From NCBI GenBank assembly GCA_964562855.1, contig CAZLVB010000001.1:3614-67613 (forward strand): a DNA stretch of 64,000 nucleotides, in the 5' to 3' direction. Below, piece after piece: positions 1 to 15,209 of the stretch. This DNA is from an uncultured Gammaproteobacteria bacterium (lineage in GTDB: Bacteria; Patescibacteriota; Microgenomatia; Curtissbacterales; GWA2-41-24). Each line of letters starts with the position of its first letter. Position 1 is the stretch's first letter. Below the pieces are notes generated by a model. The model was given only the letters and a program-made list of their open reading frames with translations, searched no databases and was not told the DNA's origin. A program made the translations under genes and the position numbers.

Positions 1-845
1 TTATGAATAAAATTGCCGAATTTTAGACCCAAGTCCTGATCCTGCAAAATGAATTTTATTGATTTCTCGATGTCCTCAAGCCGGGGTCTGCCGGTTGTAA
101 CTTCAAAACGCTGTAAGATTACTTTTGGGGGTATCAAAACAACGAGTGGCAGGGCAAGTGTGATAGTTATCAACAAAAAACCGGCCAAATATTTTTTAGG
201 GACAGAGAGAATATCTTTTTTCCAAATAAAAAAAGTAGCAATGAATAAAAGCGGCACAAAAATCCTTTCCGCATGATAGGTATACGCCGATAAAGCCAAA
301 AGAATACCGCTTACGATAAGCAATTTTTTATTTTTCAACCCATACAAAAAGGCGGTGATAGAACTTGCAGCAAAGAAGAGTCCCACAGTTGCTTCAAAGC
401 CAACCCGGGAAAACTGGAGATGCCAGGGGGAGATGGCCAACATTAGCATAGCTACTGTCGGAATATCCAATTTCAAATAATTACCAATTTCAAATTTCAA
501 ATTCGAGTTTTCAAATAGTTTTTTAGCTAAAAGATATAGTACGGGGACGGTCAGAAATCCGAAGATTGCAGATGGAAGCCTAGCGGCAAAAGGTGTCAGC
601 CCAAAAACGGCAACTGAGGGGATATTGAAGTACATGTAAAGTGGGGGTTTATAGTCGTCAAAAGATCTGTTGGTTATGGGTAGGAAGTCGCCGTATTCAT
701 CTTTGCCAGTTTTGAGAATTGAGTAGGCATTATAGGCATTACTGTTTTCGTCCCAATCTAAACTCAAAGGAATTTGTCCTAATTTGTAAAACCGGAGAAT
801 AAATGCTAAAAAAAGAATTGCCAAGAATATTGTTTTTCTACTCAA
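1..845 (-). CDS. GT39/PMT-like GT-C membrane glycosyltransferase paralog; partial, C-terminus lies beyond the window start
   Basis: Hand translation of the minus strand (frame with + coordinates divisible by 3) is open from 845 to 3. N-terminus reads LSRKTIFLAILFLAFILRFYKLGQIPLSLDWDENSNAYNAYSILKTGKDEYG ... LAISPWHLQFSRVGFE, matching the DE-motif N-terminus and ISPWH motif of the other paralogs. Putative TTG start at 843-845 preceded by GAGGAG. Confidence 0.6.
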   Translation of the reverse strand, partial: MSRKTIFLAILFLAFILRFYKLGQIPLSLDWDENSNAYNAYSILKTGKDEYGDFLPITNRSFDDYKPPLYMYFNIPSVAVFGLTPFAARLPSAIFGFLTVPVLYLLAKKLFENSNLKFEIGNYLKLDIPTVAMLMLAISPWHLQFSRVGFEATVGLFFAASSITAFLYGLKNKKLLIVSGILLALSAYTYHAERIFVPLLFIATFFIWKKDILSVPKKYLAGFLLITITLALPLVVLIPPKVILQRFEVTTGRPRLEDIEKSIKFILQDQDLGLKFGNFIH

Positions 846-2556
846 TTTTTTGCTCCTCTAACCTTTTTTTAATCTGGTCAACTTCATACACTTCAAAAAG
901 TCTGTCCCCATTGGGATCATCGACAGTAAAAATTGGCTTGACTTTAAACGATAATTCTTTGGCTTCTGTACCTTCAACCGCCAGCAAGGAGTTGACAGGA
1001 AGGGTTTCGGTACTGGGTGCTGATGGATAAAAGGTAAATTGGCCAATTTTTTCGATTACCTGCCACCCTCCCTGGTCGCGATATCTGACCACTGAGTTTA
1101 GAAAATTTTCGGGATCATATTTTTCGTAAAACAAGTAATGGATATATTGTTTGGCGTCATCCCCTTTTCTCGAAACTGCGATTTCACTATATGCGAACTT
1201 TTTGCTCTCCAAATAATTAAAAAGGTCCTTGTAACCATATCTTTGGTATCTTGCATAAACTTTTGGATAGAAATAAATCATATCTGTCCAAAATCGGGCT
1301 ATGGAGGCTAAAATGACAAGTAGTACGGCAATGCCTAACAACTGTTTTGCCCGTCTATTTTGTATCAGGGCAAAGAGTGTCATTAGACCAAAGGCGGCTA
1401 TAATCTGGGGAATTGGCATCAAGATGTTTAATCTGCCCGGATTACCAACACCCGTTATTGAAGGCCCGATAGGTATAATCAGAATCCAGGCAAGAAGCAG
1501 TAAGGAATTACTATTTTTAAATTTTAAGAGAGAAATTAGCCCGATTATCAAAAGCGGCAGTTCGAAAGTGTAAAAAAAACCTCTTAAGGGTACAGACTGA
1601 TAACCGGTGTAATTACCTTTTATGTAATAAGTTTCAGGCGATAAATTTGAGAAATAATTATTAAGATAAGTGGATAAGAAATAGGTATATTTATTGTATA
1701 TAACTGAGCAGACAAACATTGATAGTCCAGGTTGACATGAACCACGCCGAGAATTAATATCGTCAACTATTCCGCTTCTTTGAACTCCGGCAATAAAACT
1801 TTCCTGGAAAAATCGGGACTGGCCTTTAAAAGTTAATACAGTTGGAATCAGGGGTGTCAGCAGAATAAGAAATAATACTACGTTTCTCGCAAGCGCCGGC
1901 CAGATTGTTCTAAGTTTTCCTCGGTAAAAATAAATCAGCGCGGCAAGAAAAAGAGGCACGAAGAGCCAGCTGGAGCGGTAAATATAAAAACAGAGAGCAA
2001 ATCCAATAAAAGCAAAAGTTAGATATTTGCTATCCTTCAACCCCTTCAAGAAAAAATAGGTAGAGATTACTATAAAGAAAATTAAAATATCGGATTCAAA
2101 TGCATTGCGTGAAGCGACAATGTGCCACGGGGAGATTGCCAACATTAGCGCAGCTAATGTTGGAATTTCCAATTTCCAATTTCCAATTTCCAATAATTTT
2201 TTTAAGTCTTTAAAAAGTTCTTTAGTCAGCAGGTATGTCGCCCAGACAGCCAGAACGCCAAATGCTGCCGACGGGAGTCTTGTAGCGAATTCGTTGACTC
2301 CAAAGAAAAATTGTGAAACTACTGTTAAGTAAAGATATCCGACCAGCTTCCAGTCACCGAAACTTTCGAAAACCGGAAATGGTAAAAATCTCCCCCACTC
2401 GTCTTGGCCGTTTTTAAGAATCGAATAAGCATTGTAACCAAAAGCCGCCTCATCATCGTTAAAGCCGATGGGGATCGTGGTGAGATTTATGAAACGCAAT
2501 AAAACCGCTACCAAAATTATTGCGAGTAAGAAAAAATTGCCCCTGGCCCACTTCAT
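838..2556 (-). CDS. GT39/PMT-like (dolichyl/polyprenyl-phosphate-mannose-protein mannosyltransferase family) polytopic membrane glycosyltransferase
   Basis: 572 aa ORF with N-terminal TM segment followed by a DDEAAFGYNAYSILKNGQDEWG loop-1 DE motif and an ISPWH motif. Paralogous to 4037, 6217, 7809 and 9415. Confidence 0.75.
   Translation of the reverse strand: MKWARGNFFLLAIILVAVLLRFINLTTIPIGFNDDEAAFGYNAYSILKNGQDEWGRFLPFPVFESFGDWKLVGYLYLTVVSQFFFGVNEFATRLPSAAFGVLAVWATYLLTKELFKDLKKLLEIGNWKLEIPTLAALMLAISPWHIVASRNAFESDILIFFIVISTYFFLKGLKDSKYLTFAFIGFALCFYIYRSSWLFVPLFLAALIYFYRGKLRTIWPALARNVVLFLILLTPLIPTVLTFKGQSRFFQESFIAGVQRSGIVDDINSRRGSCQPGLSMFVCSVIYNKYTYFLSTYLNNYFSNLSPETYYIKGNYTGYQSVPLRGFFYTFELPLLIIGLISLLKFKNSNSLLLLAWILIIPIGPSITGVGNPGRLNILMPIPQIIAAFGLMTLFALIQNRRAKQLLGIAVLLVILASIARFWTDMIYFYPKVYARYQRYGYKDLFNYLESKKFAYSEIAVSRKGDDAKQYIHYLFYEKYDPENFLNSVVRYRDQGGWQVIEKIGQFTFYPSAPSTETLPVNSLLAVEGTEAKELSFKVKPIFTVDDPNGDRLFEVYEVDQIKKRLEEQKIE
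2139..2195. repeat. perfect 11-bp inverted repeat (CCAACATTAGC-GCA-GCTAATGTTGG, 2139-2163) followed by 4 perfect copies of heptanucleotide TTCCAAT (2168-2195), inside the CDS of GT39 paralog 838..2556
   Basis: Read directly from the sequence. The same palindrome is present at 10668-10692 in paralog 9415..11109; a degenerate copy is at 436-460. The repeat region translates in frame to LEIGNWKLEIPTLAALMLA. Confidence 0.8.
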
Positions 2557-4040
2557 GGTATTACCTGGTACAATCTCATGTAGCTATTCCCTACTCCTTT
2601 TTGGAATTTAACAACAAATTTTAAATTTCGATTTGTAATCTCTTTTTGATTCTCGTTAAAAACAAAGTACGTTTTATTAATTTGCGCCTGCTCTAGTGCC
2701 TGTTGAGAAAGTTTATTTGTATCTACCGGCCAAAAGCCGGTGATTTGTACGTTGTGATTACCGAAAAAATAAATCAGAAGGGCATACGGCAGTAGCCCAA
2801 AAGTACCTTCGGTTCCAACGTAAATCTGTTTATCTTTTGATTCGTTACGAATGATTTCAACGACCTCGTTAACTCCGTATCCCGCCGGCCAATCATTTAG
2901 ATACTGGCCCTTATCACTGTCGGCAATTCTTGCCTTTGTAGGGCTAGTCAGGAGAAAGTATGACGAAGAAAGAGGTAATATCAAAAACAAAGCAAAAATG
3001 GCTACGAATGATTTTTTAAATTGAGGAATTCGATCTAAAAAACTAATTACTCCGTGCGACAAAATAATTATTAAAAACGGAAAATAAAAAAGAAGAAACC
3101 TTGGGTAAATTACTTTATTGAAAACGGCCATCGCCAAAAACGGTATCAAAAATAAAAAAGATAAATAAATTATTCTTTTGTTCATTTTGTAGATTCCCCA
3201 AATAGCAGAAATTATAAAGATTAAGAACAGGGGCCATGTAATATAAGACGCAATCCATGTAGAAAGAGTAAAAAGGTTTGATTTAAAGAAAATGAGAGGA
3301 TCTTTTGCCACTTCTGAAAAAGGCCTGATAAATTCCAAGTTTTTGCGACCAATAATGTAAAACAGCGGGGAAAGTCTTAAACTGTTGTACATAAGTTGGG
3401 TTAAAACCACAGAAATGGCAGAAAGCCCAAGCCATTTTAAAAATTTGACATTCCGATTTTTTGCCGTGAAATCAAAAAGCAATAAAGAGAGCGGCAGAAA
3501 ATACAGAAAAAATACCCCAGACGATTTAGTAATCATTGCTAAGCCAATGGCAAAACCTGAAAATATAGATGTATCAAGACGTGGATTTTTGATGAGTTTA
3601 ACTGCAAACAAAATACTCAATATTCCAAACATTGTCAGCAACGAATCAAAAAGGGCCATACGATCGTAGAGTAAAGTGAATGGTAAGATTACATATAGAA
3701 GCGCCGAAAGTTTAGCAACTTTATCTGAAAACAGTTCTCTCGTTAGAAAATAAATTGCGACGACTGAGCCAAAACCGGCCATGACTGAGACTGCTCTTGT
3801 GGCAATTAAAGGATCATTTATAAAATTTTGAAAAATAGCGGCAAGCCAAATAAATAACGGTTGTTTGCCGTCTTCTAGAGAAATAAACCGGTGGGCTGGA
3901 TCGTGAAGAGCGACTTGGGCCCAATAGCTGTAAATTGCCTCGTCGGTGAATATCGGAATAATCTTTAGGTTGATGATTCTTGTCAGAAAATAGACTAAAA
4001 CTAAAAGAGGCCAGAAGAAAAATTCGAATTTGTTTTTCAT
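2553..4040 (-). CDS. ArnT/PMT_2-like GT-C membrane glycosyltransferase
   Basis: 495 aa polytopic ORF with an FTDEAIYSYWAQV motif resembling the ArnT DE(A/T)xY(A/S) loop motif. Overlaps both neighbours by 4 nt. Confidence 0.6.
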   Translation of the reverse strand: MKNKFEFFFWPLLVLVYFLTRIINLKIIPIFTDEAIYSYWAQVALHDPAHRFISLEDGKQPLFIWLAAIFQNFINDPLIATRAVSVMAGFGSVVAIYFLTRELFSDKVAKLSALLYVILPFTLLYDRMALFDSLLTMFGILSILFAVKLIKNPRLDTSIFSGFAIGLAMITKSSGVFFLYFLPLSLLLFDFTAKNRNVKFLKWLGLSAISVVLTQLMYNSLRLSPLFYIIGRKNLEFIRPFSEVAKDPLIFFKSNLFTLSTWIASYITWPLFLIFIISAIWGIYKMNKRIIYLSFLFLIPFLAMAVFNKVIYPRFLLFYFPFLIIILSHGVISFLDRIPQFKKSFVAIFALFLILPLSSSYFLLTSPTKARIADSDKGQYLNDWPAGYGVNEVVEIIRNESKDKQIYVGTEGTFGLLPYALLIYFFGNHNVQITGFWPVDTNKLSQQALEQAQINKTYFVFNENQKEITNRNLKFVVKFQKGVGNSYMRLYQVIP

Positions 4041-5650
4041 CGTGAAGAGATTCCTATATCGAAAACCCGTTGGCCTTCTAAATTGCTGACGGAATCGACT
4101 TTTTGAGCATCGGGAGGCAGTTGTTCCGGACTTGCAATAAAAAGCGCCTTGCCGGTAAGGGTAATATTGCCAAGACTATCACTGAATCTGTATTTATCAA
4201 AAGCCTCTACATCCAAAAAGTAAAATTTGTCTCTTTCGGTCTGGGACGTTTGCCAATAAAGTTTTGGTTCGTACTTAGTATAAAAAAGGAAATAAATATA
4301 TGGCCTTCCTTGGGCTTTTGTGACTACTATTTGATCGACTTGATCGTAATATTTTTGGGAAGCTTCAACAACCTGTTTGTAGCCGTATTGCCAGGAGCCT
4401 GAATAATTTAGAGGCCAGTGAATGTAATACATATGCAAGTAATAGAAAAAGTTGAGAGCCAATAATAAAAACGTTGCAATAAAAAAGATTTTTTTGAATT
4501 TGATTAGTTGATAAAGATAATATGCTCCAAAGGCGGCGATTAGTTGAAACGTTGGCAGAATATGGACCATTCTCAGTGCGTGCGGAGTTTCTCGAGCAGT
4601 GGCAGGACCAAGAGGTGAAACTAGCATCCAGCCAATGATTAACCACCGATACTGATGTTTTTTGGAAAATAAGAAATAAATGCCCGCCAATATTAATGGC
4701 AGATCGACAAGATAAAGTTCGCCAACTTCCTGGATTGAAAGTCTTGGATTAACATCTCCGCGAAAAAATAGGAAACTTGGGTTAAAAGCATCTAAATAAT
4801 GTTTTAAGTATTCTTGTGCATAAAATAAGCGCCGGTTGTGAATTAAATTGGACCACAAGGAATAGTTATCACGTACTTGATATCTTCTTGATTCGTCTAT
4901 GGGTTTTAAATCCCTAAAAATCGTGACTTCATTAAACCTAAGTTTGCCTTCGATAGTAATGGTTGCGAATTTAAATAGTGGCCAAAAAAGAAAAAGTGCT
5001 ACGATTGCGGTCGCAGTAACTAACTTGAGATTCGCCATAATTTGTTTTCTAAATTGCAGAAATAATATAGCCAAAATAAACGGCACAAAGAGCCTCTGGC
5101 CGGTGAACGTGTAGATTGCAGCTAAGAAGGAGAGTGCAGAAAAAAATAAGTAATATGATTTACCGGTCGCGAATTTTAAAAATAGATAGATCCCCAGTGT
5201 TGAAAAAAACAGGCCTAAATTTGCTTCAAAAGCCCCTCTTGAGAACTGTAAGTGCCAAGGGGAAATTGTTAAAAATAAAGCTGCAAGAAGCGAGATAACT
5301 TCTCTCTTAAAAAGTATTTTGGAAATTAAATAAACTAAAATAACAGTCAAAACTCCAAAAAAAGCAGAAGGGAATCTAATTGAGAATTCGTTTAGACCAA
5401 ATAAGGCCACTGACGGTACAGTTGTATAAATATAGCCTGGAGGCTTGTAATCACCAAAAGCTGCAAAATTAGTCAGTGGCATAAATTTACCGTGTTCATC
5501 ATGGCCAGTTTTAAGTATTGAATAAGCGTTGTAACCCAAAGAGGCCTCATCCCAATAAAGCGAGGGCGGGACAGATGAGAGTTTATAAAGTCTTAAAAAT
5601 AAGGCTAGCAGAACAATAGATATTAAGAGAACATTATTTAAATTTTTCAT
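4037..5650 (-). CDS. GT39/PMT-like membrane glycosyltransferase paralog
   Basis: 537 aa; YWDEASLGYNAYSILKTGHDEHGKFMPL and ISPWHLQFSRGAFE motifs. Confidence 0.75.
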   Translation of the reverse strand: MKNLNNVLLISIVLLALFLRLYKLSSVPPSLYWDEASLGYNAYSILKTGHDEHGKFMPLTNFAAFGDYKPPGYIYTTVPSVALFGLNEFSIRFPSAFFGVLTVILVYLISKILFKREVISLLAALFLTISPWHLQFSRGAFEANLGLFFSTLGIYLFLKFATGKSYYLFFSALSFLAAIYTFTGQRLFVPFILAILFLQFRKQIMANLKLVTATAIVALFLFWPLFKFATITIEGKLRFNEVTIFRDLKPIDESRRYQVRDNYSLWSNLIHNRRLFYAQEYLKHYLDAFNPSFLFFRGDVNPRLSIQEVGELYLVDLPLILAGIYFLFSKKHQYRWLIIGWMLVSPLGPATARETPHALRMVHILPTFQLIAAFGAYYLYQLIKFKKIFFIATFLLLALNFFYYLHMYYIHWPLNYSGSWQYGYKQVVEASQKYYDQVDQIVVTKAQGRPYIYFLFYTKYEPKLYWQTSQTERDKFYFLDVEAFDKYRFSDSLGNITLTGKALFIASPEQLPPDAQKVDSVSNLEGQRVFDIGISSR

Positions 5651-5654
5651 CTCG

Positions 5655-6230
5655 CTAATTAAAAAAGATATTATTACATACCGACTTTAATTGCCAATTG
5701 AAGATGAAGTACCAGATAGTTAAGTAGCTTAGGGCAACTAAAATAAATATTGACTGGGCCGATTTGGCAAGTCGCCCGATCCCCCATAGAGAAAACGTGT
5801 ATCTTGACAAGGCTAACAAATAAAACTCCAGTTTGGATGAAGAAGCAATAATTGCGTATAACGGTACAGCTAGGAATGTCAAAAAATGGACTAGAGACCA
5901 AAAACGTTTTTTTCTGGTAATTTCAACTATTCCTAAGATCAGTAGTACAACACCAACTGGCCCGACGGTTTCGAATAACAACTTAGGGGTAAAAGTGGAT
6001 AAATACGATTTGCCAAATTCGTAGAGGCCGGCACTTGCTTTATTATGAAAAAAACGGGCGACGGTTCTTTCTATATCTGTATCTGTAGCCGTTTGTGATT
6101 CGACATTAATTTTTACTGAAAGCGGGATAAAGCTATAATCGATAAATTGCTTACAACCGGTGGTTTGCCACATTCTAAAAGCATAAACTGAAACTATTAG
6201 TAAAATTAAAACTAATTTAATTTTTGCCAT
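5655..6230 (-). CDS. hypothetical membrane protein
   Basis: 191 aa ORF with an N-terminal hydrophobic segment and about four predicted TM helices. It sits between two GT39 paralogs. No recognisable family. Confidence 0.4.
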   Translation of the reverse strand: MAKIKLVLILLIVSVYAFRMWQTTGCKQFIDYSFIPLSVKINVESQTATDTDIERTVARFFHNKASAGLYEFGKSYLSTFTPKLLFETVGPVGVVLLILGIVEITRKKRFWSLVHFLTFLAVPLYAIIASSSKLEFYLLALSRYTFSLWGIGRLAKSAQSIFILVALSYLTIWYFIFNWQLKSVCNNIFFN

Positions 6231-7818
6231 TTATTTTCCAGAGAGAATATATATGACGCCCATTAGTATCATTGGCTGCAGTAAGCCAATCACCGTCGAC
6301 CTTCTTCCATGACGGTGCAACGTATAAAATTCTTCCTTTATTGTACAAATCAAAATCGTCAGAAGTGAAAATGTATTTTGAGAATCCATCCTTGTTGCCT
6401 TCAGTTGCGAACTTTTGTGGATCGTATTTTTTATAAAACAGAACATATATATATGGAACTTGGGTAATGTTGGAGATATAAATTTTGTCAAAAGTATTTT
6501 CGAATTGCACCAACTTTTCTACCATTTGCTTGTTGCCATCTTGCCAGTCCGCGGAAAATTTTCGCGGATAATGAATAAAAAGTAGGTGCACATAGGTTAA
6601 AAATGAATAGACAATGACAATCGAAATCATCAGCTTGATAATGTACGGTTTGTAATTTGAGAAGAGATGGTATAACCCTAACCCTGATAAAAAAGCCATT
6701 GGCACTGCCATTTGAAGAGTCCTGTATGCGTGAGGCGCTGGATTGACGATACTGGCTGGAATGGGAGCAACAAAAAGCATTGCAAGTAATAACTTAACCG
6801 ACTTTTTATCCTGGCCTCTAAGTGCAAAAAGGGCAACAATAATTAAAATTAGCTCAAAAGAAAATATTTGGCCCATGTCGACTTGAGAATGCCTGCCGGT
6901 TTGATCCCCGTTTATGAAAAGGAAGGTAGGCGAGAAATGTTCAATATAGTTGTTTAAAGCGATCGAGGAATAATAAAAAGGCTTGGACCAGTATCCGGAT
7001 AAAAGTCTCAACGGTCTTTTGGAACTTTGATCAAACCCGACTCTAGCCATTTCGAAATCACCAGGATCGAATCCCGACTGGGAAATCGCCCTAGCTCTAC
7101 CATTTGGCGAAAAAGTGAAAGTAAAAAGCGGCAGAAAAATAATTACTCCGACGATCACCGGAATTATTAAAATCTTGATCATTTTTCTGAGTTGGTTGAA
7201 ATAAATTAAAAAAATCGCAAAGATCATCAGGGGGGTAAAGATTCTATAGGCATGATAGCTGTACATTGAAAGATCAAAGAGGATAAAAGCGGCTGTGAAA
7301 TAAGCCCATTTCTTCTTTTCAAACGAATTTAAAAAAATAAATAAGCCACTCATAAAGAAAAAGAGACCGGCCGTTGATTCAAAACCAGCTCTGGAAAACT
7401 GTATATGCCAAGGTGAAATAGCTAAGAATAATGTCGAGAATAAGGATAATTTTTCATTTTTGGTTAATTTGTAAACGATTAAAAAGAAAACTAATACGGT
7501 GATGGATCCTAAAAAAGCGCTTGGAAGACGAACTGCAAATTCATTCAGGCCGAATACTGCAATCGATGGTACAAGCAAATAATGATAAACGGGTAGTTTC
7601 CAGTCACCGAAGCTTTCAAAGAACAATGGCAGAGTAACTCCGTGGTGATCCTTACCCGTTTTAAGCAGGGAGTAAGCATCGTAACCAAAAACCGCTTCAT
7701 CCCAATAAAGCCCAGGCGGATTGAGCCCCAATTTATAGAAGCGTAGAATGCCAGCTAGGATCAAAATCACCAAGAGGATTACAAGCTTATGATTTGAGAT
7801 TTTAATTTTCATTGCCAT
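6217..7818 (-). CDS. GT39/PMT-like membrane glycosyltransferase paralog
   Basis: 533 aa; LYWDEAVFGYDAYSLLKTGKDHHG and ISPWHIQFSRAGFE motifs. Confidence 0.75.
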   Translation of the reverse strand: MAMKIKISNHKLVILLVILILAGILRFYKLGLNPPGLYWDEAVFGYDAYSLLKTGKDHHGVTLPLFFESFGDWKLPVYHYLLVPSIAVFGLNEFAVRLPSAFLGSITVLVFFLIVYKLTKNEKLSLFSTLFLAISPWHIQFSRAGFESTAGLFFFMSGLFIFLNSFEKKKWAYFTAAFILFDLSMYSYHAYRIFTPLMIFAIFLIYFNQLRKMIKILIIPVIVGVIIFLPLFTFTFSPNGRARAISQSGFDPGDFEMARVGFDQSSKRPLRLLSGYWSKPFYYSSIALNNYIEHFSPTFLFINGDQTGRHSQVDMGQIFSFELILIIVALFALRGQDKKSVKLLLAMLFVAPIPASIVNPAPHAYRTLQMAVPMAFLSGLGLYHLFSNYKPYIIKLMISIVIVYSFLTYVHLLFIHYPRKFSADWQDGNKQMVEKLVQFENTFDKIYISNITQVPYIYVLFYKKYDPQKFATEGNKDGFSKYIFTSDDFDLYNKGRILYVAPSWKKVDGDWLTAANDTNGRHIYSLWKINGKN

Positions 7819-9452
7819 TCACCTATAAGGAATATTTCTTTTTTTTGCGAGTAGTCAGAAACTGTATACAGTTTTATAAATCGTTTCTCTCTGCCGATTG
7901 CCTGCAGTTCCTGAGGCGAAATTGCTAGCAATGTCTTTGTTCCGCTAATAGAGTCAATTGCGGCCTCGTCCAAATCCTTGCCGCCGCTATCCCAGTATGT
8001 GGTGCCGAATTTGTATTTACCAATGCGCTCTTGATTAAAGCCGAAATAGTTTTGAGGCTCAATTTTATTGTAAAAAAGATAGAAGATATAAGGTTTCCAG
8101 TAGCGTCCGGTCACAATAACCGAGTCGTAACTATTTTCAATTTCTGCAATTTGGGAAAACATCTGCTTATAGCCGTAAGCCCAGCTCGCACTGTCTTTAA
8201 GAGGGTAGACAAAATAATAGCTGTAAATATAATTTGTAAAAAATAGAATAATTGCAATGACAGCTAATATTTTATAAATCTGTCTCTTAACAAGAACTGC
8301 TTGTAATCCTAATGCGGACAGCATAATTAAAGATGGCAGCATCAATAAAGAGCGCAGTGCGTGTGGTGATTGTTGGGAAAATGCTGCAGGAAGCGGAGAA
8401 AAAACTAACCAGGCCGCAATAAATATTTTTGATTTTAACTCAACTTTTTTCATTAAAATCCAAAACCCTATAAAAATTAATGGTAATTCGAAAAGATAGA
8501 AGTTGCCGTGATACGCAGAATGATGACGCGGATTAGAATCACCCCCGAAAAACAAAAACGGGAATGAAAAGTGCGAAAAATAGTTATTTGCCGCCGTAAA
8601 AATGTAAGGTATTCTTCTGTTTAGGAAAAAATTCGCAAAAACGCTTGGATTTTTTGCCTTGGCATCCACATAATCTACTGTCAGTGATTTGTCCGAAAAA
8701 ATGCTAATTTCGGAAATATGTTTTACTCCCACGGGTCGAAAGGTTTGAATTATTAAGGGGGTAAGAAAAAGTATAGATATCGCTAAGCCCGATAGATAGT
8801 ATCTGACATTTTTGAATATCAATTTATTAAAAACGATAAAGAATACAAGTACTATAAGAGGTACAAACAATTTTGGTGAATGATAGAAAAAGATCGAAGT
8901 CGCAAGCACAGGAATTGAAAATAAAGCTACTAGGCGATTTCCTGTGCCATAAAACAGCATATTGGATCCTAACACCACAAGTGTTAGTGCTACGTTTGCT
9001 TCAAATGCAGCTCTTGAAAATTGCAGGTGCCAAGGGGAAATTGCCAGAAGGGCCGAGGCACTTAGCGCCACCTGTTCGCTAAGTTTGTAATTTGCAAAGA
9101 GATTTTTGGATAAAAAATAGATGCCGATGACTGCAAAAACACCGAAGAGCGCGGAAGGAAATCTTACTGAAAATTCAGAAAGGCCTAAGAATTTTATAAA
9201 AGGTGCGTCAAGATATATATACCCCGGAAGCTTATAATCGTTAAAAGATTTAAATAATATAGGCAGCTTTGTTCCGTACTCATCTGTTTGATTTTTAGCT
9301 ATAGAAAAAGCATTATACCCATTGGCTACTTCATCCCAATATAAAGAAACAGGAAAAGACTCAAGCTTATAAAATCTAAGAATTGCCGCAATAACTGTGA
9401 TTACAATAAGAAGTTTATATTTCATCTGAAACAATGTGGATAGCTGGTTCAC
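7809..9452 (-). CDS. GT39/PMT-like membrane glycosyltransferase paralog
   Basis: 547 aa; LYWDEVANGYNAFSIAKNQTDEYG and ISPWHLQFSRAAFE motifs. Confidence 0.75.
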   Translation of the reverse strand: MNQLSTLFQMKYKLLIVITVIAAILRFYKLESFPVSLYWDEVANGYNAFSIAKNQTDEYGTKLPILFKSFNDYKLPGYIYLDAPFIKFLGLSEFSVRFPSALFGVFAVIGIYFLSKNLFANYKLSEQVALSASALLAISPWHLQFSRAAFEANVALTLVVLGSNMLFYGTGNRLVALFSIPVLATSIFFYHSPKLFVPLIVLVFFIVFNKLIFKNVRYYLSGLAISILFLTPLIIQTFRPVGVKHISEISIFSDKSLTVDYVDAKAKNPSVFANFFLNRRIPYIFTAANNYFSHFSFPFLFFGGDSNPRHHSAYHGNFYLFELPLIFIGFWILMKKVELKSKIFIAAWLVFSPLPAAFSQQSPHALRSLLMLPSLIMLSALGLQAVLVKRQIYKILAVIAIILFFTNYIYSYYFVYPLKDSASWAYGYKQMFSQIAEIENSYDSVIVTGRYWKPYIFYLFYNKIEPQNYFGFNQERIGKYKFGTTYWDSGGKDLDEAAIDSISGTKTLLAISPQELQAIGREKRFIKLYTVSDYSQKKEIFLIGEWQ

Positions 9453-11109
9453 CGTTTATATAATTGATAACTTTCAAGGTTTTGCCTTTGCCGGATAATT
9501 CTTGTGGTGTCCCCACAAAAAGAGTTTTTGCTTCTTGTCGTTGTTGTTCATAATCAATCGGTCTAAAAAGGTATCTATCAAATTTATTTCTATCTTCCAG
9601 AAAACCGCCAGAAACAGTACCCCCCTCCTCTAAATATTTTTTGGGGTCGTACTTTAGGTAGTAGAGCCAAAATTCGTGAGGTTGTTCTAATTTGGTGGAA
9701 ACAATGACACGATCATATCTATCTTTAATCTCTTCAGAGTATAGTGCCGCTTCTCGTCTTCCATATATCCAGGCTTTCGAATATTCGTAGGGCATATGAA
9801 TATAGTATTGATGAAGGTAAAATGAAAAATTCGCAAATAATAGTAAAGCTACGAAAATTGTAAACAATCGTTTATGTTTGAAGGAAGAATAAATAGTGAA
9901 AGCACCAATTGCAGTAAATATCTGATAAGTAGGCAAATATATCTCACTTCTTAGGGAATGAGGAACTCCCCAAGTTACAGATGAGGCAATCGGCGCTATC
10001 AAAAACCACCAAAATATAATAACTTTCGACTTAACCTCAAATTTTTTGGCAATTAAAAAATAAATTCCGGCGAGGATAAACGGAATGTCCCAAAGATATA
10101 AAAGTCCGATTTGTGGAGCATGATGTCTGTCCATATCGGCATTCAAAAAGAGAAAATCAGGTCTAAAATGTGAAAGATAATTTTCAATTAAAATCGGAAT
10201 ATAGACAAGACGACGATTATGGAAAATTCGGCCCAACGTCAGCTGCCCTTGATTTTCGTCCTGTGCAATTAATTCGGCAGCCTTATATTGAGGAGAGACG
10301 TCGGCAAAAATAGTTGTACCTTTAAACCTCATTTGTCCTGCTGTAGAAAAAATAACTGGCAATAAAACTAGTGCAAAAATTAGGGAAATTGCCGCGGGTA
10401 GGATTAGCGATTTGATTGATTTTAAAAGGTTATCTTTAAATAGATAAATTAAAACTATGGAATAAATGGGCACAAAAACTCGGGCATTATGGTACATAAA
10501 AAGATTTACACCGAAAGCAATGGCAGATATGGATAACCAAAGGGTTCTCTTTCGGTCTTTGCTTGTGATTGCCTTCAAAAAAGCCCATGTGGCCGATACA
10601 GACAAAAAAATAGCACTGTTTGTTTCGAAAGCAACCCTCGAAAATTGTAAGTGCCAAGGGGAGATGGCCAACATTAGCGCAGCTAATGTTGGAATGTCCA
10701 ATTGAAACGTTTTCCTTTGGAAAAGCAAATTTCTAATTTCTAATGAATTGACTAATTGGGATGGGGGTCTTGGGAATAATTCTTTGACCATCAAATAGGT
10801 GAATAAAACTGCTAAGACTCCAAGAATTGCCGAAGGTAATCTAACAGCGAAGTCATTGAGTCCGAAAATAGCAATTGAGGGTACTACCAGATAGGTGTAA
10901 ACTGGCGGCTTGTAATCGTCAAATGATCTAAAAGATAAAGGAAATTTATAGCCATATTCGTCCCGGCCAGTCTTAAGAATTGAAAGGGCATTATAACCGT
11001 GGGCAGTTTCGTCCCAGTCAAGACTAGGAGGGTTCTGGCCGAGCTGATAAAACCTCAAGATTGCAGCAAGCAGAATTATTAGAATCAAGTAAAAATTATT
11101 TTTTAACAT
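9415..11109 (-). CDS. GT39/PMT-like membrane glycosyltransferase paralog
   Basis: 564 aa; LDWDETAHGYNALSILKTGRDEYG motif and IPTLAALMLAISPWHLQFSRVAFE, sharing the identical palindromic block with gene 838..2556. Confidence 0.75.
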   Translation of the reverse strand: MLKNNFYLILIILLAAILRFYQLGQNPPSLDWDETAHGYNALSILKTGRDEYGYKFPLSFRSFDDYKPPVYTYLVVPSIAIFGLNDFAVRLPSAILGVLAVLFTYLMVKELFPRPPSQLVNSLEIRNLLFQRKTFQLDIPTLAALMLAISPWHLQFSRVAFETNSAIFLSVSATWAFLKAITSKDRKRTLWLSISAIAFGVNLFMYHNARVFVPIYSIVLIYLFKDNLLKSIKSLILPAAISLIFALVLLPVIFSTAGQMRFKGTTIFADVSPQYKAAELIAQDENQGQLTLGRIFHNRRLVYIPILIENYLSHFRPDFLFLNADMDRHHAPQIGLLYLWDIPFILAGIYFLIAKKFEVKSKVIIFWWFLIAPIASSVTWGVPHSLRSEIYLPTYQIFTAIGAFTIYSSFKHKRLFTIFVALLLFANFSFYLHQYYIHMPYEYSKAWIYGRREAALYSEEIKDRYDRVIVSTKLEQPHEFWLYYLKYDPKKYLEEGGTVSGGFLEDRNKFDRYLFRPIDYEQQRQEAKTLFVGTPQELSGKGKTLKVINYINGEPAIHIVSDEI

Positions 11110-12814
11110 TTCTTAAAACTAGACCGGCTGCCAGCAGGAAAGACCCGAGACTGAGATAATTTGCAAACAACCTTGTTGGAGTTTCTCCAAATTTTACATC
11201 TACTTCGTGGCCACCTTTGGTTAATTTAATGCTCATGAGCCCGGATGCGTCCTGTTCACTGTCAAGATCGAGACTTGTAGTGTTGGTAATTTCAAATTCT
11301 TGATGCAGACTAAGTTTTTGGCCATCAACAAATATTGTGACACCTGGAAAGTAAAACTTATTTATTCTTATCTGGGCGCTTTCGGAATTGACGTCTACCT
11401 CAAAAGACAGTCTATTTGATTTGGCACGTACATTAGACAAACTTGATTCGCCGGATAAATTTTCGACATTTATGCTGGGGTCAAAACCTATTGGTACTTT
11501 GGTGGATTGCCTCCATATCGGAGTAAATTCATTATACTGAGTAGCTGTACCCGAGTAATCGGAAAAATGATCGTCGGGCCACATTAGACTTTGATTAATT
11601 CTTAAGTGATTGCGATTAGCTATCAACACCGCTAAAACCAGAAAGATAAATATCAAACCTGGTTTTAATGCCTTAGCAGCAAAAGCGGCCAGATAGGCCA
11701 ACGATACAGATACAATTCCTAAAAGCCTCCAAGGAAGATCGATAAAATGCAGAAACTTGATTTTTTGCCAAATTATGGTGTTAGGTTTAATCTGCAACAT
11801 TAAAAATATTGCAAGCAAGGCAATTGCAAAGAAAAAAAAGATTAGCCAATTTTCGGCTTTTGAGAAAGACAGTTTCTTTTTAAAAAAAGCATATACCAAA
11901 AGAAAAAACACTAGGAGTAAAATCAATATATGCGCTAAGCCAATTTGGAAAGATATTTGGTCATTAACTGTTCCCGGTAGGTCAAATCCGTATCCCCATG
12001 GAGATCGGATAAGCTGCTTTAAGGTGACAAAATGATTTTCATAGGCAGTTCTTATGATTTCGTCGAATCTTGTGAATCTGCGTTCAAAAACTGACGGCAG
12101 GTAAGTCACGGCTGAAAGCAAAAATCCCCAAATTGCGACAATTGCCGAGTTCCTGAGCATTCGAGCAAAATTTTTGTTGAGCGCCAACACAATTGCGTAT
12201 CCTGCAATTAAAGGGGCTGCCAAGATTGCTACTAAATTCTGAGAAAGTAACAAAGCAGAAAATGAGAGCACACTAATAGCTAGCCATTTCCAAGTATTCT
12301 CTTTCCATAGTTTAGTAATTGAAAATAACAATAAAGGAAGAAAAGTATATGCTAAAAGCTCGGAGATTGAGCCGCGAACGTATATCAAGGAAAATCTGTA
12401 GGGAGCCCACATATAAAACAGTGCGCCCAAAAAGGCCGCTTTTTCAGACTTGAAAACTGCTTTAAGCCAAAGATAGCTAAAAATTCCCGAAAAAATAAAG
12501 CCGACAGCCATCAGAATTTTAAAACTATCTGCGAAAGAAAAACCCAAGAAATGAATTACTGAACCAAAAGCATAGGGTAACGGATATATGTAAACGAATA
12601 TCGGGCTTCCTAGGCCGTTGTAGAAGTTGCCAGCAAAACGTGGCGGAAATTGGCCATCGCTAAGGGCTTGATAATAAGCTGCAATGCGCGCCGCATGGGT
12701 TTCGCCGTCGTGACTCGTGTAAAAACCCGGAAGAGTCAAACTTTTAAGCGCAGGTGCTGAAAGGATAATCAGAGCAGCTATAGCCAGAAAATTCGGATTA
12801 TACCAAAACCTCAC
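11096..12814 (-). CDS. large polytopic membrane protein, putative GT-C-type glycosyltransferase (unnamed family B)
   Basis: 572 aa; N-terminal motif FYTSHDGETHAARIAAYYQALSDGQFPPRF...NGLGSPIFVYIYPLPY shared with 26484..28226 and 34100..35710. Many TM helices, then a C-terminal soluble domain. Confidence 0.5.
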   Translation of the reverse strand: MRFWYNPNFLAIAALIILSAPALKSLTLPGFYTSHDGETHAARIAAYYQALSDGQFPPRFAGNFYNGLGSPIFVYIYPLPYAFGSVIHFLGFSFADSFKILMAVGFIFSGIFSYLWLKAVFKSEKAAFLGALFYMWAPYRFSLIYVRGSISELLAYTFLPLLLFSITKLWKENTWKWLAISVLSFSALLLSQNLVAILAAPLIAGYAIVLALNKNFARMLRNSAIVAIWGFLLSAVTYLPSVFERRFTRFDEIIRTAYENHFVTLKQLIRSPWGYGFDLPGTVNDQISFQIGLAHILILLLVFFLLVYAFFKKKLSFSKAENWLIFFFFAIALLAIFLMLQIKPNTIIWQKIKFLHFIDLPWRLLGIVSVSLAYLAAFAAKALKPGLIFIFLVLAVLIANRNHLRINQSLMWPDDHFSDYSGTATQYNEFTPIWRQSTKVPIGFDPSINVENLSGESSLSNVRAKSNRLSFEVDVNSESAQIRINKFYFPGVTIFVDGQKLSLHQEFEITNTTSLDLDSEQDASGLMSIKLTKGGHEVDVKFGETPTRLFANYLSLGSFLLAAGLVLRNVKK

Positions 12815-12839: not shown

Positions 12840-13907
12840 TTACGGTTGAGGGTAAATTACTTTTCCTTGTGGGTTACCGGCAAATCGGCCATTTTCAAAA
12901 ACAATTTGGCCACGAATTACAACTTTTTTGACCTTCCCCCTACCCTCCATGCCAACAAATGGCGTCCAGCCGCATTTGGTAAATAAACCTTTATTGGAGA
13001 TCTTGTATTTTTTAGCAGTGTCGATCTCCACATAGGTTTCCTGTTGGTTTGGAAGACTGAAAATTATTCGGGGATTAGTGCAAGCCAATTCTATCAACCG
13101 TTCAAGACTAATTCTCTCTTGAGTGACAGCATTTAACATTAAAGGCAAAGTCGTTTCTAATCCGGGAACTCCATATTTAGGCGAGGAGTGATCGTATTTT
13201 TCTGCAAGCGTATGGGGGGCATGATCTGTTGAAATCATATCTATTTTGTCAAGATTTAACCACAGTTTTTCTTGATCTTTTTTGGATAAAAGTGGCGGTT
13301 TCATCACTCCTTGCGGACCGAGTCTTTTAAGGTCACTCTTGTTCAGAAAGAGGTGGTGGGGGCAAACTTCGCTGCTAATATCAAGACCATCGCTTTTGGC
13401 CTTATTGACTGCCCTAATCTGGTCAAATGCGATATGACAAATGTGAAGTTTTTTCCTGTATTTCCTGGCTAATCTGATGGCTGCCTCAACGGTTTTCCCT
13501 TCAGCGTGAACCATTATCGGCAAAGGACTATTCCACAATTTAAAAATTACTTCTCTGTCTGCCGCTTTATCAATCAGAAGCGGGCCTGTCGTTTGGTTCA
13601 TGTAGACTTTTAGGCCAAAAACTTTTCGCCGTACTTGTTTAAAATATTTCGTAGATAAGGAAGTGCCCCCAAAATTAAAACCGACATCGCACCAAATTTT
13701 GTCTTGAGCAAGATTTATTTTGTCCTCTAAGTCGTTGGGGGTAGCAGTCGGCGGAGAGTTATTTGGCATATCCAAAATCTGGGTATAGCCGCCGGCAACA
13801 GCCGCTTGGGTACCAGTATAGAAATCTTCTTTGTACGTCGCCCCAGGTTCTCTCAGATGAACATGGACGTCGACAAGTCCGGGGAGCTTTATTAAATTAC
13901 TTTTCAA
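12840..13907 (-). CDS. pyrC: dihydroorotase
   Basis: 355 aa; metal-binding motif LPGLVDVHVHLREPG and ISTDHAPH typical of the dihydroorotase/amidohydrolase family. Confidence 0.75.
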   Translation of the reverse strand: MKSNLIKLPGLVDVHVHLREPGATYKEDFYTGTQAAVAGGYTQILDMPNNSPPTATPNDLEDKINLAQDKIWCDVGFNFGGTSLSTKYFKQVRRKVFGLKVYMNQTTGPLLIDKAADREVIFKLWNSPLPIMVHAEGKTVEAAIRLARKYRKKLHICHIAFDQIRAVNKAKSDGLDISSEVCPHHLFLNKSDLKRLGPQGVMKPPLLSKKDQEKLWLNLDKIDMISTDHAPHTLAEKYDHSSPKYGVPGLETTLPLMLNAVTQERISLERLIELACTNPRIIFSLPNQQETYVEIDTAKKYKISNKGLFTKCGWTPFVGMEGRGKVKKVVIRGQIVFENGRFAGNPQGKVIYPQP

Positions 13908-13979
13908 ATTAGATCTGATTTTAGCATATGGATCATTTTTGCTTGTATAATGAAAATTACTCAGAGGGCAAATTCAATT

Positions 13980-15209
13980 ATGAAGATTAGTATTTCGAAT
14001 GTAATTATCCTTTTAATCTTCTCTTTTGCTGTTTTTTCCGGATTTATTACTTATCGGGCCAGTTGGTTCAATATCGACAAACACTTTTCACTTCTTGCAC
14101 AGAGTTTCCTTAAAAATGACTTGTTTCTTGATCCTAACAATCTTCCAAATGGGGATTACGTAGATTATCAAGGAAAGCAATATCTGTTTTTTGGACCGAT
14201 GCCTTCAATCTTACTTATGCCTCTCGTTGCATTTTTCGGAAAGAATTTTCCCCAAATGACACTATCTATTTCTTCACTGATCATAATATTTCTGGGCATT
14301 TTCTTTTTATCCAAAAAAATAAAATTTTCGACTGCAGACTCATTTTGGCTTGCCAACTTTTTTGTCTTCGGGACAGTTCTATATTTTGTCGGCTTAGTAA
14401 ATATATCAGCATATCTTGTCCAAGCCGTTGCGACCGCCTTTGTAGTACTGGCGCTTTTGGAATATTTTACAAAGAGACGGTGGTTTGTAATTGGAGTACT
14501 TGTCGCGGCAGCAGGGGCTACAAGAATTACGCTATTCGGCATGATGCTATTTTTCCTTTTAGAAATATTTCGAATGAGAGACAAAATAGACGTTAAAAGA
14601 AATCTAACTTTATTACTTATCCCGGTAATCTTTTCCTTATCAGTGCTTGGGCTATATAATTTTCGGCGATTTCATTCGCCTTTTGACACCGGCTATACCC
14701 GTAACGTCTCGGTTTTGGATAAAAATTACTACAATTATAAAGAAGGCTGGTTTAGCGTTAAGCACATACCGGCAAATCTGTATGCTCTATTTATAGCAAC
14801 TCCCAAGCCGGTATTAAAGGAAGGAATAGAATTTGTTTTGAAGTTTCCATATCTAAAGGTAGATCATTTGGGAATGGCTATATGGATCACTTCCCCGCTT
14901 TTTATCTACCTATTAAAAATTAAGAGGGAAGGTTATACAATTTCGGCATTTTTGACGATTCTTGCAATGTCAATCCCTTCACTTGTCTATTTTGGTATTG
15001 GAATCTCGCAATTCGGCTACCGCTACAGTTTGGATTTTTTACCTCTACTATTTTTAATTCTTTTATCCGCATTTGCCCAAAAAAAATTGCCACCTTTTTC
15101 TAAATTGTTAATTCTAACAGGTATAATTTTTGATACTTTTTACATGGCCAGTATTTGGAATGATTATCCTCTCTTGCATTTTTGGGATTACCTTGGGATT
15201 AATTTCTGA
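13980..15209 (+). CDS. polytopic membrane protein (possible GT-C-like glycosyltransferase); the only plus-strand gene
   Basis: ORF 13950..15209 (419 aa) with about 11 TM helices. The second in-frame ATG at 13980 has a GAGGG about 10 nt upstream, and a TATAAT-like box overlaps the first ATG, so 13980 is the preferred start. Confidence 0.5.
   Translation: MKISISNVIILLIFSFAVFSGFITYRASWFNIDKHFSLLAQSFLKNDLFLDPNNLPNGDYVDYQGKQYLFFGPMPSILLMPLVAFFGKNFPQMTLSISSLIIIFLGIFFLSKKIKFSTADSFWLANFFVFGTVLYFVGLVNISAYLVQAVATAFVVLALLEYFTKRRWFVIGVLVAAAGATRITLFGMMLFFLLEIFRMRDKIDVKRNLTLLLIPVIFSLSVLGLYNFRRFHSPFDTGYTRNVSVLDKNYYNYKEGWFSVKHIPANLYALFIATPKPVLKEGIEFVLKFPYLKVDHLGMAIWITSPLFIYLLKIKREGYTISAFLTILAMSIPSLVYFGIGISQFGYRYSLDFLPLLFLILLSAFAQKKLPPFSKLLILTGIIFDTFYMASIWNDYPLLHFWDYLGINF

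Follow-up and report, generated by a model that had tools for sequence, protein, structure and literature searches.

We analyzed a stretch of 64,000 nucleotides from an uncultured, ultra-small bacterium of the Candidatus Curtissbacteria (Microgenomates, CPR), here referred to as the window, and found that positions 1–11109 carry, on the minus strand, six head-to-tail paralogs of a single glycosyltransferase family, here named family A. The array enzymes were placed in the GT-C superfamily (Pfam PMT_2, clan CL0111) and within it in the GT-C_A structural class, where family A is one family without a characterized member. Judged from the related genomes, the array is ancient, colinear and common to the Curtissbacteria, and multi-copy clusters are the rule in Microgenomates. 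We lean towards the view that the paralogs are undecaprenyl-phosphate-sugar-dependent transferases with an outside-facing active site, which build or decorate a surface glycopolymer and are maintained as non-redundant members of an ancient operon.

Organization of the array

All ORFs reported by the sequence-only reading were found at the same coordinates, all of them on the minus strand, a detail that this reading had left out. The genes of the region are given below from the upstream end, together with the loci (L numbers) in which orthologs were located.

11096..12814, minus strand: PTPS_related-like polytopic membrane protein (GT-C clan), 572 aa; conserved gene adjoining the upstream end of the array, with orthologs standing before the array in L003, L005, L006, L008 and L010
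9415..11109, minus strand: orthogroup a, family-A GT-C glycosyltransferase, first copy of the array, 564 aa; PMT_2 42 bits, family HMM 663.6 bits; carries both DWDE...GYNA and ISPWHLQFSR..FE; orthologs at the corresponding place of the array in L001, L003, L005, L008 and L010
7809..9452, minus strand: orthogroup b, family-A GT-C glycosyltransferase, 547 aa, GTG start; PMT_2 31.1 bits, family HMM 579.6 bits; orthologs only in L003 and L010, hence a variable member
6217..7818, minus strand: orthogroup c, family-A GT-C glycosyltransferase, 533 aa; PMT_2 41.4 bits, PMT 38.2 bits, family HMM 620.6 bits; orthologs in L003, L005, L007 and L010
5655..6230, minus strand: "s", small polytopic membrane protein inside the array, 191 aa
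4037..5650, minus strand: orthogroup e, family-A GT-C glycosyltransferase, core member, 537 aa; PMT 58.0 bits, PMT_2 49 bits; codons of Asp34/Glu35 at 5546–5551 and of Glu142 at 5225–5227
2553..4040, minus strand: orthogroup f, distant ArnT-like PMT_2 GT-C glycosyltransferase, 495 aa; PMT_2 61 bits, PMT 39.3 bits
838..2556, minus strand: orthogroup g, family-A GT-C glycosyltransferase, 572 aa; PMT_2 39.2 bits, family HMM 587.6 bits; loop 1 reads NDDE; orthologs in L001 (two copies), L003, L006, L007, L008 and L010
1..845, minus strand: orthogroup h, family-A GT-C glycosyltransferase, last copy of the array, core member; PMT_2 36.3 bits, family HMM 285.4 bits

Orthogroup h is represented in the window by its N-terminal 281 aa only, the remainder lying past the window edge; full-length orthologs of 522–555 aa close the array in L001 and L003–L006. 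Neighboring array genes either overlapped by 4–38 nt or stood 4 nt apart, and the array is probably a co-transcribed operon. Since a promoter and terminator scan of the region gave the same signal as shuffled sequence, this operon structure was read from the gene overlaps alone.

The sequence-only reading had described a head-to-tail run of six to seven paralogs with one shared architecture. The head-to-tail order was confirmed, but the run is interrupted by the conserved 191-aa membrane ORF. Six copies belong to family A, and the two sequence motifs quoted for the array are real and in register in all six. The seventh gene (orthogroup f), however, is only a distant relative, scoring 29.8 bits on the family-A HMM. 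It shares TM1 and the loop-1 Asp-Glu pair (TDE) with family A but lacks GYNAYSILK and ISPWH..FSR..FE. Although located outside family A, it is a core member of the array and invariably follows copy e directly in Curtissbacteria loci. Orthogroup e itself was present in every Curtissbacteria locus examined, and its orthologs, mostly from Curtissbacteria, were 58–73% identical.

In the loci of Curtissbacteria, the 191-aa ORF is again found immediately upstream of d and of e. It was 43–45% identical to the ORFs at the same position in L005 (9429–10004) and L003 (7581–8078), which argues for a maintained gene. Pfam and NCBIfam scans of this ORF gave no match, and its likeness to residues ~210–350 of family A was weak (hhalign E 9e-4, probability 23%; blastp 3e-4). 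A decayed family-A fragment was considered as its origin and rejected, as the identity is kept across genomes and the homology to family A is marginal.

The gene upstream of the array (11096–12814) is a paralog of 34100–35710 (32% identity, E 1e-77), which matched Pfam PTPS_related above cut-off. PTPS_related is a member of the Pfam GT-C clan CL0111 (PMC7801869). When 11096–12814 was compared with family A by hhalign, a probability of 75% was obtained across the TM3-EL2 region.

Family membership, fold and conserved residues

Pfam PMT_2 (PF13231) scored above its gathering threshold of 26.1 bits in all seven array genes (31.1–61 bits). The six family-A copies reached 285–902 bits on the family HMM and were 32–49% identical to each other in blastp (E 1e-49 to 1e-111), instead of the about 35–45% estimated earlier. 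Pfam PMT (PF02366, cut-off 22.7 bits) was exceeded by 4037–5650, 2553–4040 and 6217–7818 (58.0, 39.3 and 38.2 bits), whereas 838–2556 remained below the cut-off (19.5 bits) and no match was present in 1–845, 7809–9452 and 9415–11109. Neither PMT_4TMC nor MIR domains were detected in any array copy (Pfam scan, E≤0.01).

None of the array genes reached a curated NCBIfam cut-off. The best score was obtained with Agl23 (TIGR03663, 50 versus 126 bits) and apparently reflects generic N-terminal GT-C similarity. The ArnT equivalog PRK13279 matched 4037–5650 at 20.4 bits (cut-off 567) and none of the other array copies. No array copy matched the bacterial Pmt equivalog NF058602 at E≤0.01; the sole match to this model within the window was the unrelated gene 39403–40887, with 32 bits against a cut-off of 800.

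The AlphaFold2 model of 4037–5650 (pLDDT 91.2, pTM 0.90) showed the GT-C_A fold: the TM domain is polytopic, and the first extracytoplasmic loop is structured. A small alpha/beta domain is made up of the last ~115 aa at the C-terminus. The fold was equally close to STT3, ArnT, Pmt4 and ALG12, and both ALG12 and ALG9 were among the top structural matches. In a single-sequence phmmer search of 4037–5650 against PDB sequences nothing was found at E≤1; the family profile alone reached ArnT and STT3, weakly.

The original assignment of the array to GT39/PMT could not be upheld in view of the missing PMT_4TMC and MIR domains, the missing NCBIfam protein O-mannosyltransferase match and the equal structural distance to four GT-C enzymes. 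The same three findings bear on an alternative function, according to which the paralogs would be PMT-like protein O-glycosyltransferases, each with its own secreted or surface targets (pilins, S-layer or adhesin-like proteins) in the manner of fungal PMT1-7. They speak against this function, which we consider unlikely. The database label [quoted passage not shown] on the array genes should therefore not be taken as protein O-mannosylation.

Among 291 family members, Asp34, Glu35, Arg20, Arg92 and Arg360 were invariant (100%); Arg138 occurred in 99% of the members and Glu142 in 94%. Lys69 was found in 82% of the members and in 63% outside the two core orthogroups. A loss of the catalytic Asp/Glu in most copies was looked for, but the loop-1 pair was kept in all seven window copies, so the pseudo-enzyme reading fails. 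The counterparts of Asp34/Glu35 are D55/E56 in ArnT and D77/E78 in Pmt1 (PMC7801869). In the profile alignment to ArnT, Lys69 corresponds to Lys85, a lipid-phosphate contact, and Glu142 to Asp158; the roles of these two ArnT residues, and of the loop-1 Asp-Glu in ArnT and Pmt1, have been described (PMC7801869). Loop 1 of family A contains GYNA (Tyr40 in 90% and Ala42 in 93% of members) and DYKPP with the above-mentioned Lys69, whereas the loop-1 motifs of ArnT are RYA and YFEKP (PMC5377068); the spacing is similar and the motifs are analogous but non-identical. Since every copy retains the loop-1 Asp-Glu as well as the remaining positions that align with the active site of ArnT/PMT, the array copies look like active enzymes.

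Conservation and divergence of the copies

The Curtissbacteria loci followed the strict colinear order DHO-P-a-b-c-s-d-s-e-f-g-h with 3–8 copies, and eight orthogroups were distinguished in an NJ tree. Three genes (e-f-h) form the core, while copies a, b, c, d and g were each missing from some related genomes. All 56 full-length Microgenomates loci examined held 2–7 copies, and ~5,962 clusters (50% identity) matched the family at E≤1e-30. A local expansion within one genome, as initially proposed, is contradicted by this colinear array and the multi-copy clusters; the variation in copy number between sister genomes that the sequence-only reading had suggested looking for was indeed observed. 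No report of GT-C, GT39 or GT83 expansions in CPR was found in the open-access literature searched.

At the DNA level, similarity between the copies was confined to motif-coding stretches of 65–84 nt with 60–81% identity. The two quoted motifs were the sole DNA-level repeats, with 61–75% identity over an 80-nt stretch and 60–74% over a 65-nt stretch. Recent duplication or assembly collapse is ruled out by this low, motif-limited identity. Every copy had orthologs in other genomes at 52–73% identity, nearer than the paralogs are to one another. For pairs of window genes and orthologs (NG86) dN ranged from 0.21 to 0.49, and dS was undefined with synonymous sites saturated in every pair; judged qualitatively from this comparison, selection on the array copies appears to be purifying.

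It had to be considered that the copies are redundant or decaying duplicates, or an artefact of a collapsed or chimeric contig. The copy number differs between genomes, and copy 1–845 is incomplete, though merely through the window edge. However, all ORFs are intact, the catalytic residues are conserved, the DNA identity between copies is low and restricted as described, and a positional ortholog of every copy was found in independent ENA, NCBI and Logan assemblies. Moreover, dN is far under the saturated dS. We regard decay or artefact as extremely improbable, in agreement with the earlier claim that the copies are functional.

The orthogroups differed most in the loop at residues 233–312. 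Only six positions clearly separated orthogroup e from orthogroup a, the two largest orthogroups, and specificity-determining positions thus weakly suggest functional divergence. That acceptor or donor have diversified among the copies is a reasonable inference.

Genomic context and proposed function

The window contains 19 GT-C genes, which occupy ~48% of the 64 kb. Besides the array enzymes they include one MptA-like, two YfhO and three PTPS_related genes. Five GT2 genes (at 15199, 31055, 42265, 45664 and 63254) resembled AglJ, PpgS, Dol-P-hexose transferase and ArnC models with 40–111 bits, all under cut-off, and the one at 45664–46851 is fused to a GtrA_DPMS_TM domain (56 versus 26.1 bits). 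A BacA/UppP gene at 61711–62487 (249 versus 33.4 bits) shows that undecaprenyl-phosphate carrier metabolism is represented, and a Wzx-like flippase, nucleotide-sugar enzymes (31818–34081 and 46848–54468) and rhamnose genes were present as well. In the syntenic locus L005 the array is followed by an ArnE/F-like SMR protein (48 bits, below the cut-off of 99), a PpgS-like GT2 (159 bits, below the cut-off of 370) and a DUF2304 protein; these genes lie outside the window and are known by synteny. A PIG-V-like Mannosyl_trans2 gene was also found after the array in syntenic loci. Past the left edge of the window, GT2, GT4, PIG-V-like, SMR, PpgS-like and DUF2304 genes are accordingly expected.

According to the function we favor, each enzyme is predicted to reside in the cytoplasmic membrane, where a polyprenyl (undecaprenyl) phosphate-sugar on the outer face would be the donor and an extracytoplasmic molecule would receive the sugar. 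Catalysis and substrate binding would depend on the Asp-Glu pair of loop 1 and on a Glu predicted to lie in loop 2. Donor synthesis would be the task of putative GT2 polyprenyl-phosphate sugar synthases, and GtrA- or SMR-type flippases encoded nearby would carry the donors to the other side of the membrane. Each paralog would then create a different linkage or use a different acceptor position. Beyond the observed family membership, fold, conserved residues, orthology, colinearity and gene context, we infer the lipid-linked donor, the outside-facing active site and the glycopolymer acceptor. Since each orthogroup is conserved, fixed in its array position and most divergent in the variable loop, the paralogs are probably non-redundant. 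The most probable acceptor, in preference to proteins, is a glycopolymer on the cell surface (secondary wall polysaccharide or lipoglycan). The PMT_2-type GT-C enzymes characterized in monoderms use LTA, WTA, rhamnan and secondary wall polysaccharide as acceptors and not proteins (PMC8035078). This, together with the polysaccharide-type character of the surrounding 50 kb (Wzx-like flippase, YfhO genes, MptA-like gene and rhamnose genes), is a further argument against protein O-glycosylation.

The paralogs might alternatively act in succession on the outer membrane face and assemble one complex lipid- or wall-anchored heteroglycan, instead of decorating a pre-made polymer. Models for this are the mycobacterial Emb/Aft/Mpt/PimE set and the ER-lumenal ALG3/9/12/6/8/10 series. 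The fixed order of the eight orthogroups with its three-gene core, the other GT-C types in the same window, the PIG-V-like gene after the array and the structural matches to ALG12 and ALG9 are in line with such a succession. However, the absence of a, b, c, d and g from one locus or another is more easily reconciled with optional decoration than with a fixed series of obligatory steps, and we consider successive assembly rather doubtful. Equally speculative is its extension to the a–h array and the other GT-C genes of the 55-kb locus. These would form an extracytoplasmic assembly line with a gene order mirroring the reaction order. Its product would be a surface lipoglycan or wall glycan peculiar to the lineage, dominating the Microgenomates envelope and mediating host or phage attachment or recognition, and variation in which of a, b, c, d and g are present would create "serotype"-like diversity. 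Such an assembly line would give bacteria with genomes of ~1 Mb their own equivalent of the ER ALG pathway or of mycobacterial LAM synthesis.

Returning to the favored role of the array in building or decorating a surface glycopolymer, we compared it with known systems. ArnT (GT83; PDB 5EZM/5F15), the undecaprenyl-phosphate-L-Ara4N:lipid A transferase, was only 12% identical to family A. Its gene is usually single-copy and part of an arn operon, in contrast to the multi-paralog array, and no arn-type genes (ArnA, ArnB, ArnD) were detected in Pfam scans of the window. The acceptor lipid A is unlikely in a CPR host, given that a Gram-positive-like envelope is assumed for CPR (PMC6744442). Protein O-mannosyltransferases of GT39 (fungal Pmt1-7, actinobacterial Pmt) move mannose from polyprenyl-phosphate-mannose onto Ser/Thr of proteins and were 15–16% identical to the array copies. 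They have a C-terminal PMT_4TMC domain and, in the eukaryotic members, MIR domains, whereas the array copies carry neither and stand in a polysaccharide-like genomic context. In fungi the PMT paralogs are scattered over the genome, as opposed to the operon arrangement found here. EmbA/B/C, AftA-D, MptA/B and PimE of mycobacteria and corynebacteria as well as the ER ALG series belong to several GT families and are mostly encoded by dispersed genes, while here one family is diversified in tandem and in a fixed order.

The closest functional model is provided by the multi-component transmembrane glycosylation systems of monoderms (GtlB, GttB, GtcC, CsdD/CsdF, GacL, GtsC, YkcB). PMT_2, a Gram-positive-like envelope and GtrA/SMR flippases are common to these systems and the array, and the GT2 polyprenyl-phosphate sugar synthases of the former have putative counterparts near the latter. 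In monoderms each GT2 partner is paired with a single GT-C, and a genome holds up to ~3 such systems (PMC8035078), whereas here a single operon carries one family in six to eight paralogous copies, next to further GT-C genes.

The largest related contigs were 0.98–1.14 Mb in size, which suggests a host genome near 1 Mb. For such a genome the share of the window devoted to lipid-carrier-dependent membrane glycosyltransferases would be a large investment. CPR/Patescibacteria account for a large part of bacterial diversity, yet next to nothing has been described of their cell-surface chemistry, and glycans are nowhere mentioned in a 2024 perspective on what is unexplored in patescibacterial biology. 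The conserved gene order across Curtissbacteria and the multi-copy clusters of Microgenomates suggest that an elaborate glycoconjugate of the surface has been under selection for a long time; such a molecule could plausibly determine episymbiotic attachment, host range or phage recognition. Orthogroups a–h, with invariant Asp34, Glu35, Arg92 and Arg360 and the near-invariant Glu142, represent a defined gene set for biochemistry.

Composition and arrangement of the array

The genes within bases 1-12814 of the window were placed by ORF listing and translation. The gene coordinates of the sequence-only reading were matched exactly, and a 191-aa membrane ORF missing from its list was added. All array genes were located on the minus strand, here in transcription order:

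11096-12814, minus strand, PTPS_related-like membrane protein
9415-11109, minus strand, family-A copy a
7809-9452, minus strand, family-A copy b
6217-7818, minus strand, family-A copy c
5655-6230, minus strand, 191-aa membrane ORF (s)
4037-5650, minus strand, family-A copy e
2553-4040, minus strand, ArnT-like copy f
838-2556, minus strand, family-A copy g
1-845, minus strand, family-A copy h (N-terminal 281 aa only, cut by the window edge)

Adjacent genes overlapped by 4-38 nt or were spaced by 4 nt, which suggests translational coupling. A promoter and terminator scan was indistinguishable from shuffled sequence. Repeats at the DNA level were restricted to motif-coding stretches of 65-84 nt with 60-81% identity, in register in six copies. 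Therefore, a collapsed or chimeric assembly as well as a recent duplication were excluded.

Copies h, g and a shared an extra insertion of 13-22 residues after TM3 (389-472, 2091-2174 and 10620-10703), which ended in (K/Q)L(D/E)IPT(L/V)A(A/M)LMLAISPWH. Its DNA was the most alike inter-copy stretch (71-81% identity over 84 nt), suggesting a closer kinship of these orthogroups or local gene conversion.

The polytopic ORF s matched no Pfam or NCBIfam family. Counterparts with 43-45% identity were present at the same array position in two loci of other genomes, L005 (9429-10004) and L003 (7581-8078); L003 carried a second s copy at 9591-10004. The ORF was invariably located immediately upstream of copy e and/or copy d, the latter absent from the window. 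It resembled family A marginally over residues ~210-350 (FHNK..Y...TF.P.LLFE vs. HNRR..Y...AFNPSFLF) and is possibly either an accessory subunit or a paralog fragment that was domesticated.

Family membership and active-site residues

All seven array glycosyltransferase genes scored over the gathering threshold of Pfam PMT_2. Judged by sequence, six of them group tightly in a single family, here named family A, with 32-49% mutual identity (blastp E 1e-49 to 1e-111) and 285-902 bits against the family-A HMM. The gene 2553-4040 reached only 29.8 bits and is a distant relative. The architecture previously ascribed to all copies was found in the six family-A members; 2553-4040 retained TM1 and the TDE motif of loop 1 but lacked GYNAYSILK and ISPWH..FSR..FE.

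The family-A fold is GT-C_A with ArnT-like proportions (a polytopic TM domain and a C-terminal alpha/beta domain of ~115 aa), and its members belong to the PMT_2 / GT-C_A superfamily. The proposed GT39/PMT assignment was not supported: Pfam search found no MIR or PMT_4TMC domain in family A and the bacterial Pmt model of NCBIfam had no match among the array copies, so that the tested defining features of a GT39 PMT are absent. None of the curated NCBIfam cut-offs was attained by the array copies (Agl23, 50 bits vs. 126; ArnT, 20 bits vs. 567), family A falling far short of the ArnT equivalog model. The top database matches of 4037-5650 (58-73% identity), the named ones almost all from Candidatus Curtissbacteria (Microgenomates, CPR/Patescibacteria), were labelled 'glycosyltransferase family 39 protein', 'phospholipid carrier-dependent glycosyltransferase' or 'ArnT-like'.

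Asp34-Glu35 in loop 1 (numbering of copy 4037-5650) is the counterpart of the known active-site pairs D55/E56 of ArnT and D77/E78 of Pmt1 (PMC7801869). In the ArnT profile alignment Lys69 aligned with ArnT Lys85 and Glu142 with ArnT Asp158. GYNA and DYKPP, both in loop 1 of family A, are similar to RYA and YFEKP, two motifs that are functional in ArnT (PMC5377068). Among 291 family-A proteins of 84 loci, Asp34, Glu35, Arg20, Arg92 and Arg360 were kept in 100%, Arg138 and Pro131 in 99%, Trp132 in 98%, Asp51 in 97%, Glu142 in 94% and Lys69 in 82%. The acidic pair of loop 1 was present in every window copy, in line with the retained catalytic motifs reported before, and no loss of catalytic residues was seen. 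Decay or artefact as an explanation of the array was excluded. Residues 233-312, probably the long extracytoplasmic loop after TM7, showed the highest conservation inside orthogroups and the highest divergence between them (0.64 vs. 0.42).

Orthogroups and distribution of family A

Ortholog loci in five independent assemblies contained the same kind of array with the same flanking genes. These were a dihydroorotase and a PTPS_related-like protein upstream, and a GT2, a GT4, a PIG-V-like Mannosyl_trans2 gene and a small SMR-like protein downstream. An NJ tree separated eight orthogroups (a to h) with one member per genome each, except for locus L001 with two g copies. From twelve loci of Curtissbacteria and Chisholmbacteria, five of which never served as references, we sorted the ORFs into these orthogroups. 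With DHO for dihydroorotase and P for the PTPS_related-like gene, all Curtissbacteria loci followed the single colinear order DHO-P-a-b-c-s-d-s-e-f-g-h, whereas the order differed in both Chisholmbacteria loci (L013, L014). As the proposed comparison with sister genomes revealed, copy number varies, from an e-f-h core (L004, L011, L012) to eight copies (L003, L010). The window array (a-b-c-s-e-f-g-h) lacks d alone.

Orthologs were 52-73% identical, compared to 32-49% for paralogs, which places the duplications before the Curtissbacteria radiation. A dN of 0.21-0.49 with saturated dS, from which no numerical dN/dS was obtainable, indicates purifying selection on the copies. In L001, on a 976-kb contig of a Curtissbacteria genome, orthogroup g is tandemly duplicated (13108-16469); thus the array can still gain as well as lose copies.

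A scan in which each species was represented by a single genome gave at least 580 relatives. The best 80 of these belonged to Curtiss-, Chisholm-, Levy-, Gottesman-, Roizman- and Woesebacteria or to generically labelled MAGs. Each of the 56 loci for which 10 kb of flank was complete on both sides carried 2-7 family-A copies, mostly 3-5; as these loci were chosen via a family-A match, clustering is the rule where family A occurs. Orthogroups e and a reach across the sampled Microgenomates loci, and family A comprises ~5,962 clusters at 50% identity (E<=1e-30).

Microgenomates-type family-A arrays were also present in many MAG records of species representatives titled 'uncultured Gammaproteobacteria' (L015, L019, L020, L022, L024, L026-L029 and many more); a single record bore the title 'Pseudomonadales' and another 'Limnocylindrales'. 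Such titles seem to be placeholders or wrong assignments, unfit for judging the taxonomic range of family A.

The surrounding glycan locus and the proposed role

The array occupies the left end of a ~55-kb glycan locus, nearly all on one strand, whose genes were typed by Pfam, NCBIfam and paralogy. The window contained 19 GT-C-type genes from six or more sequence families, which add up to ~30.6 kb (about 48% of its 64 kb):

Family A, six genes, starts 1, 838, 4037, 6217, 7809, 9415
ArnT-like PMT_2, two genes, starts 2553, 39403
Other PMT_2-like, five genes, starts 22587, 28201, 29635, 40887, 44044
PTPS_related-like, three genes, starts 11096, 26484, 34100
YfhO, two genes, starts 16894, 35780
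MptA-like (sub-threshold), one gene, start 38191

Eight of the 19 lie at 1-12814; the array is just one part of a GT-C supercluster, which extends through 11096-45663 (minus strand). Interspersed were nine GT2 genes, one GT4, a methyltransferase and a Wzx-like flippase (25033-26508). Five GT2 genes were akin to polyprenyl-phosphate sugar synthases, every score being under the cut-off. One of them (45664-46851, minus strand) has a C-terminal GtrA/DPMS transmembrane domain, so that a lipid-phosphate-sugar synthase may here be fused to its flippase. Among the nucleotide-sugar enzymes were UDP-glucose dehydrogenases and enzymes of the GDP-mannose dehydratase type, along with genes of the rhamnose pathway.

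Downstream of the array, L005 carried an ArnE/F-like SMR protein (below the curated cut-off), a PpgS-like GT2 (below the cut-off) and a DUF2304 protein, which together with the GT-C genes make up a candidate complete three-component set. For the window, which ends inside copy h, we infer this downstream part by synteny.

In their mode of action, the array enzymes are predicted to resemble ArnT, PMT and Gtr-type GT-C enzymes. GT2 enzymes would charge undecaprenyl phosphate with sugars, flippases would bring the lipid-linked sugars to the outer face, and every GT-C paralog would move a sugar onto an acceptor position of its own. We infer that the paralogs are non-redundant, because every orthogroup is conserved at a fixed array position and residues 233-312 diverge between orthogroups. 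A strictly sequential assembly line is possible; however, copies a, b, c, d and g are optional across genomes, which points to decoration instead.

Protein O-glycosylation by the array enzymes is possible too. A glycopolymer acceptor is favoured, since characterised PMT_2-type GT-C enzymes of monoderms use LTA, WTA, rhamnan or secondary wall polysaccharide as acceptors (PMC8035078), the CPR envelope is considered Gram-positive-like (PMC6744442) and the neighbouring genes are of polysaccharide type.

The single genes are already in public databases under generic names and the chemistry is probably that of a conventional GT-C mechanism. Our search of open-access literature found no report of expanded or arrayed GT-C, GT39 or GT83 genes in CPR. 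The novelty is the organisation: as many as eight paralogs from a distinct large GT-C_A family with uncharacterised members stand in conserved colinear arrays, in organisms with very small genomes.

Two pyrimidine biosynthesis genes lie inside the glycan locus: a dihydroorotase-type amidohydrolase (12840-13907, minus strand), the conserved upstream limit of the array region in Curtissbacteria loci with long enough flank, and an aspartate carbamoyltransferase (43118-44026, minus strand). The sole convincing plus-strand gene of the window (13950-15209) encodes a 419-aa polytopic membrane protein that matched no family (EpsG-like at E 0.7 only) and may represent either a polymerase of the Wzy/EpsG type or a further GT-C-like protein. 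Towards its right end (54468-63197, minus strand) the window is outside the glycan locus and holds genes for housekeeping and envelope functions: a TsaD-family fragment (possibly TsaB), Sua5/TsaC, TsaE, VanZ, a PcsB-like M23 peptidase, FtsX, FtsE, RF2, BacA/UppP (61711-62487, minus strand) and a YkuD L,D-transpeptidase.
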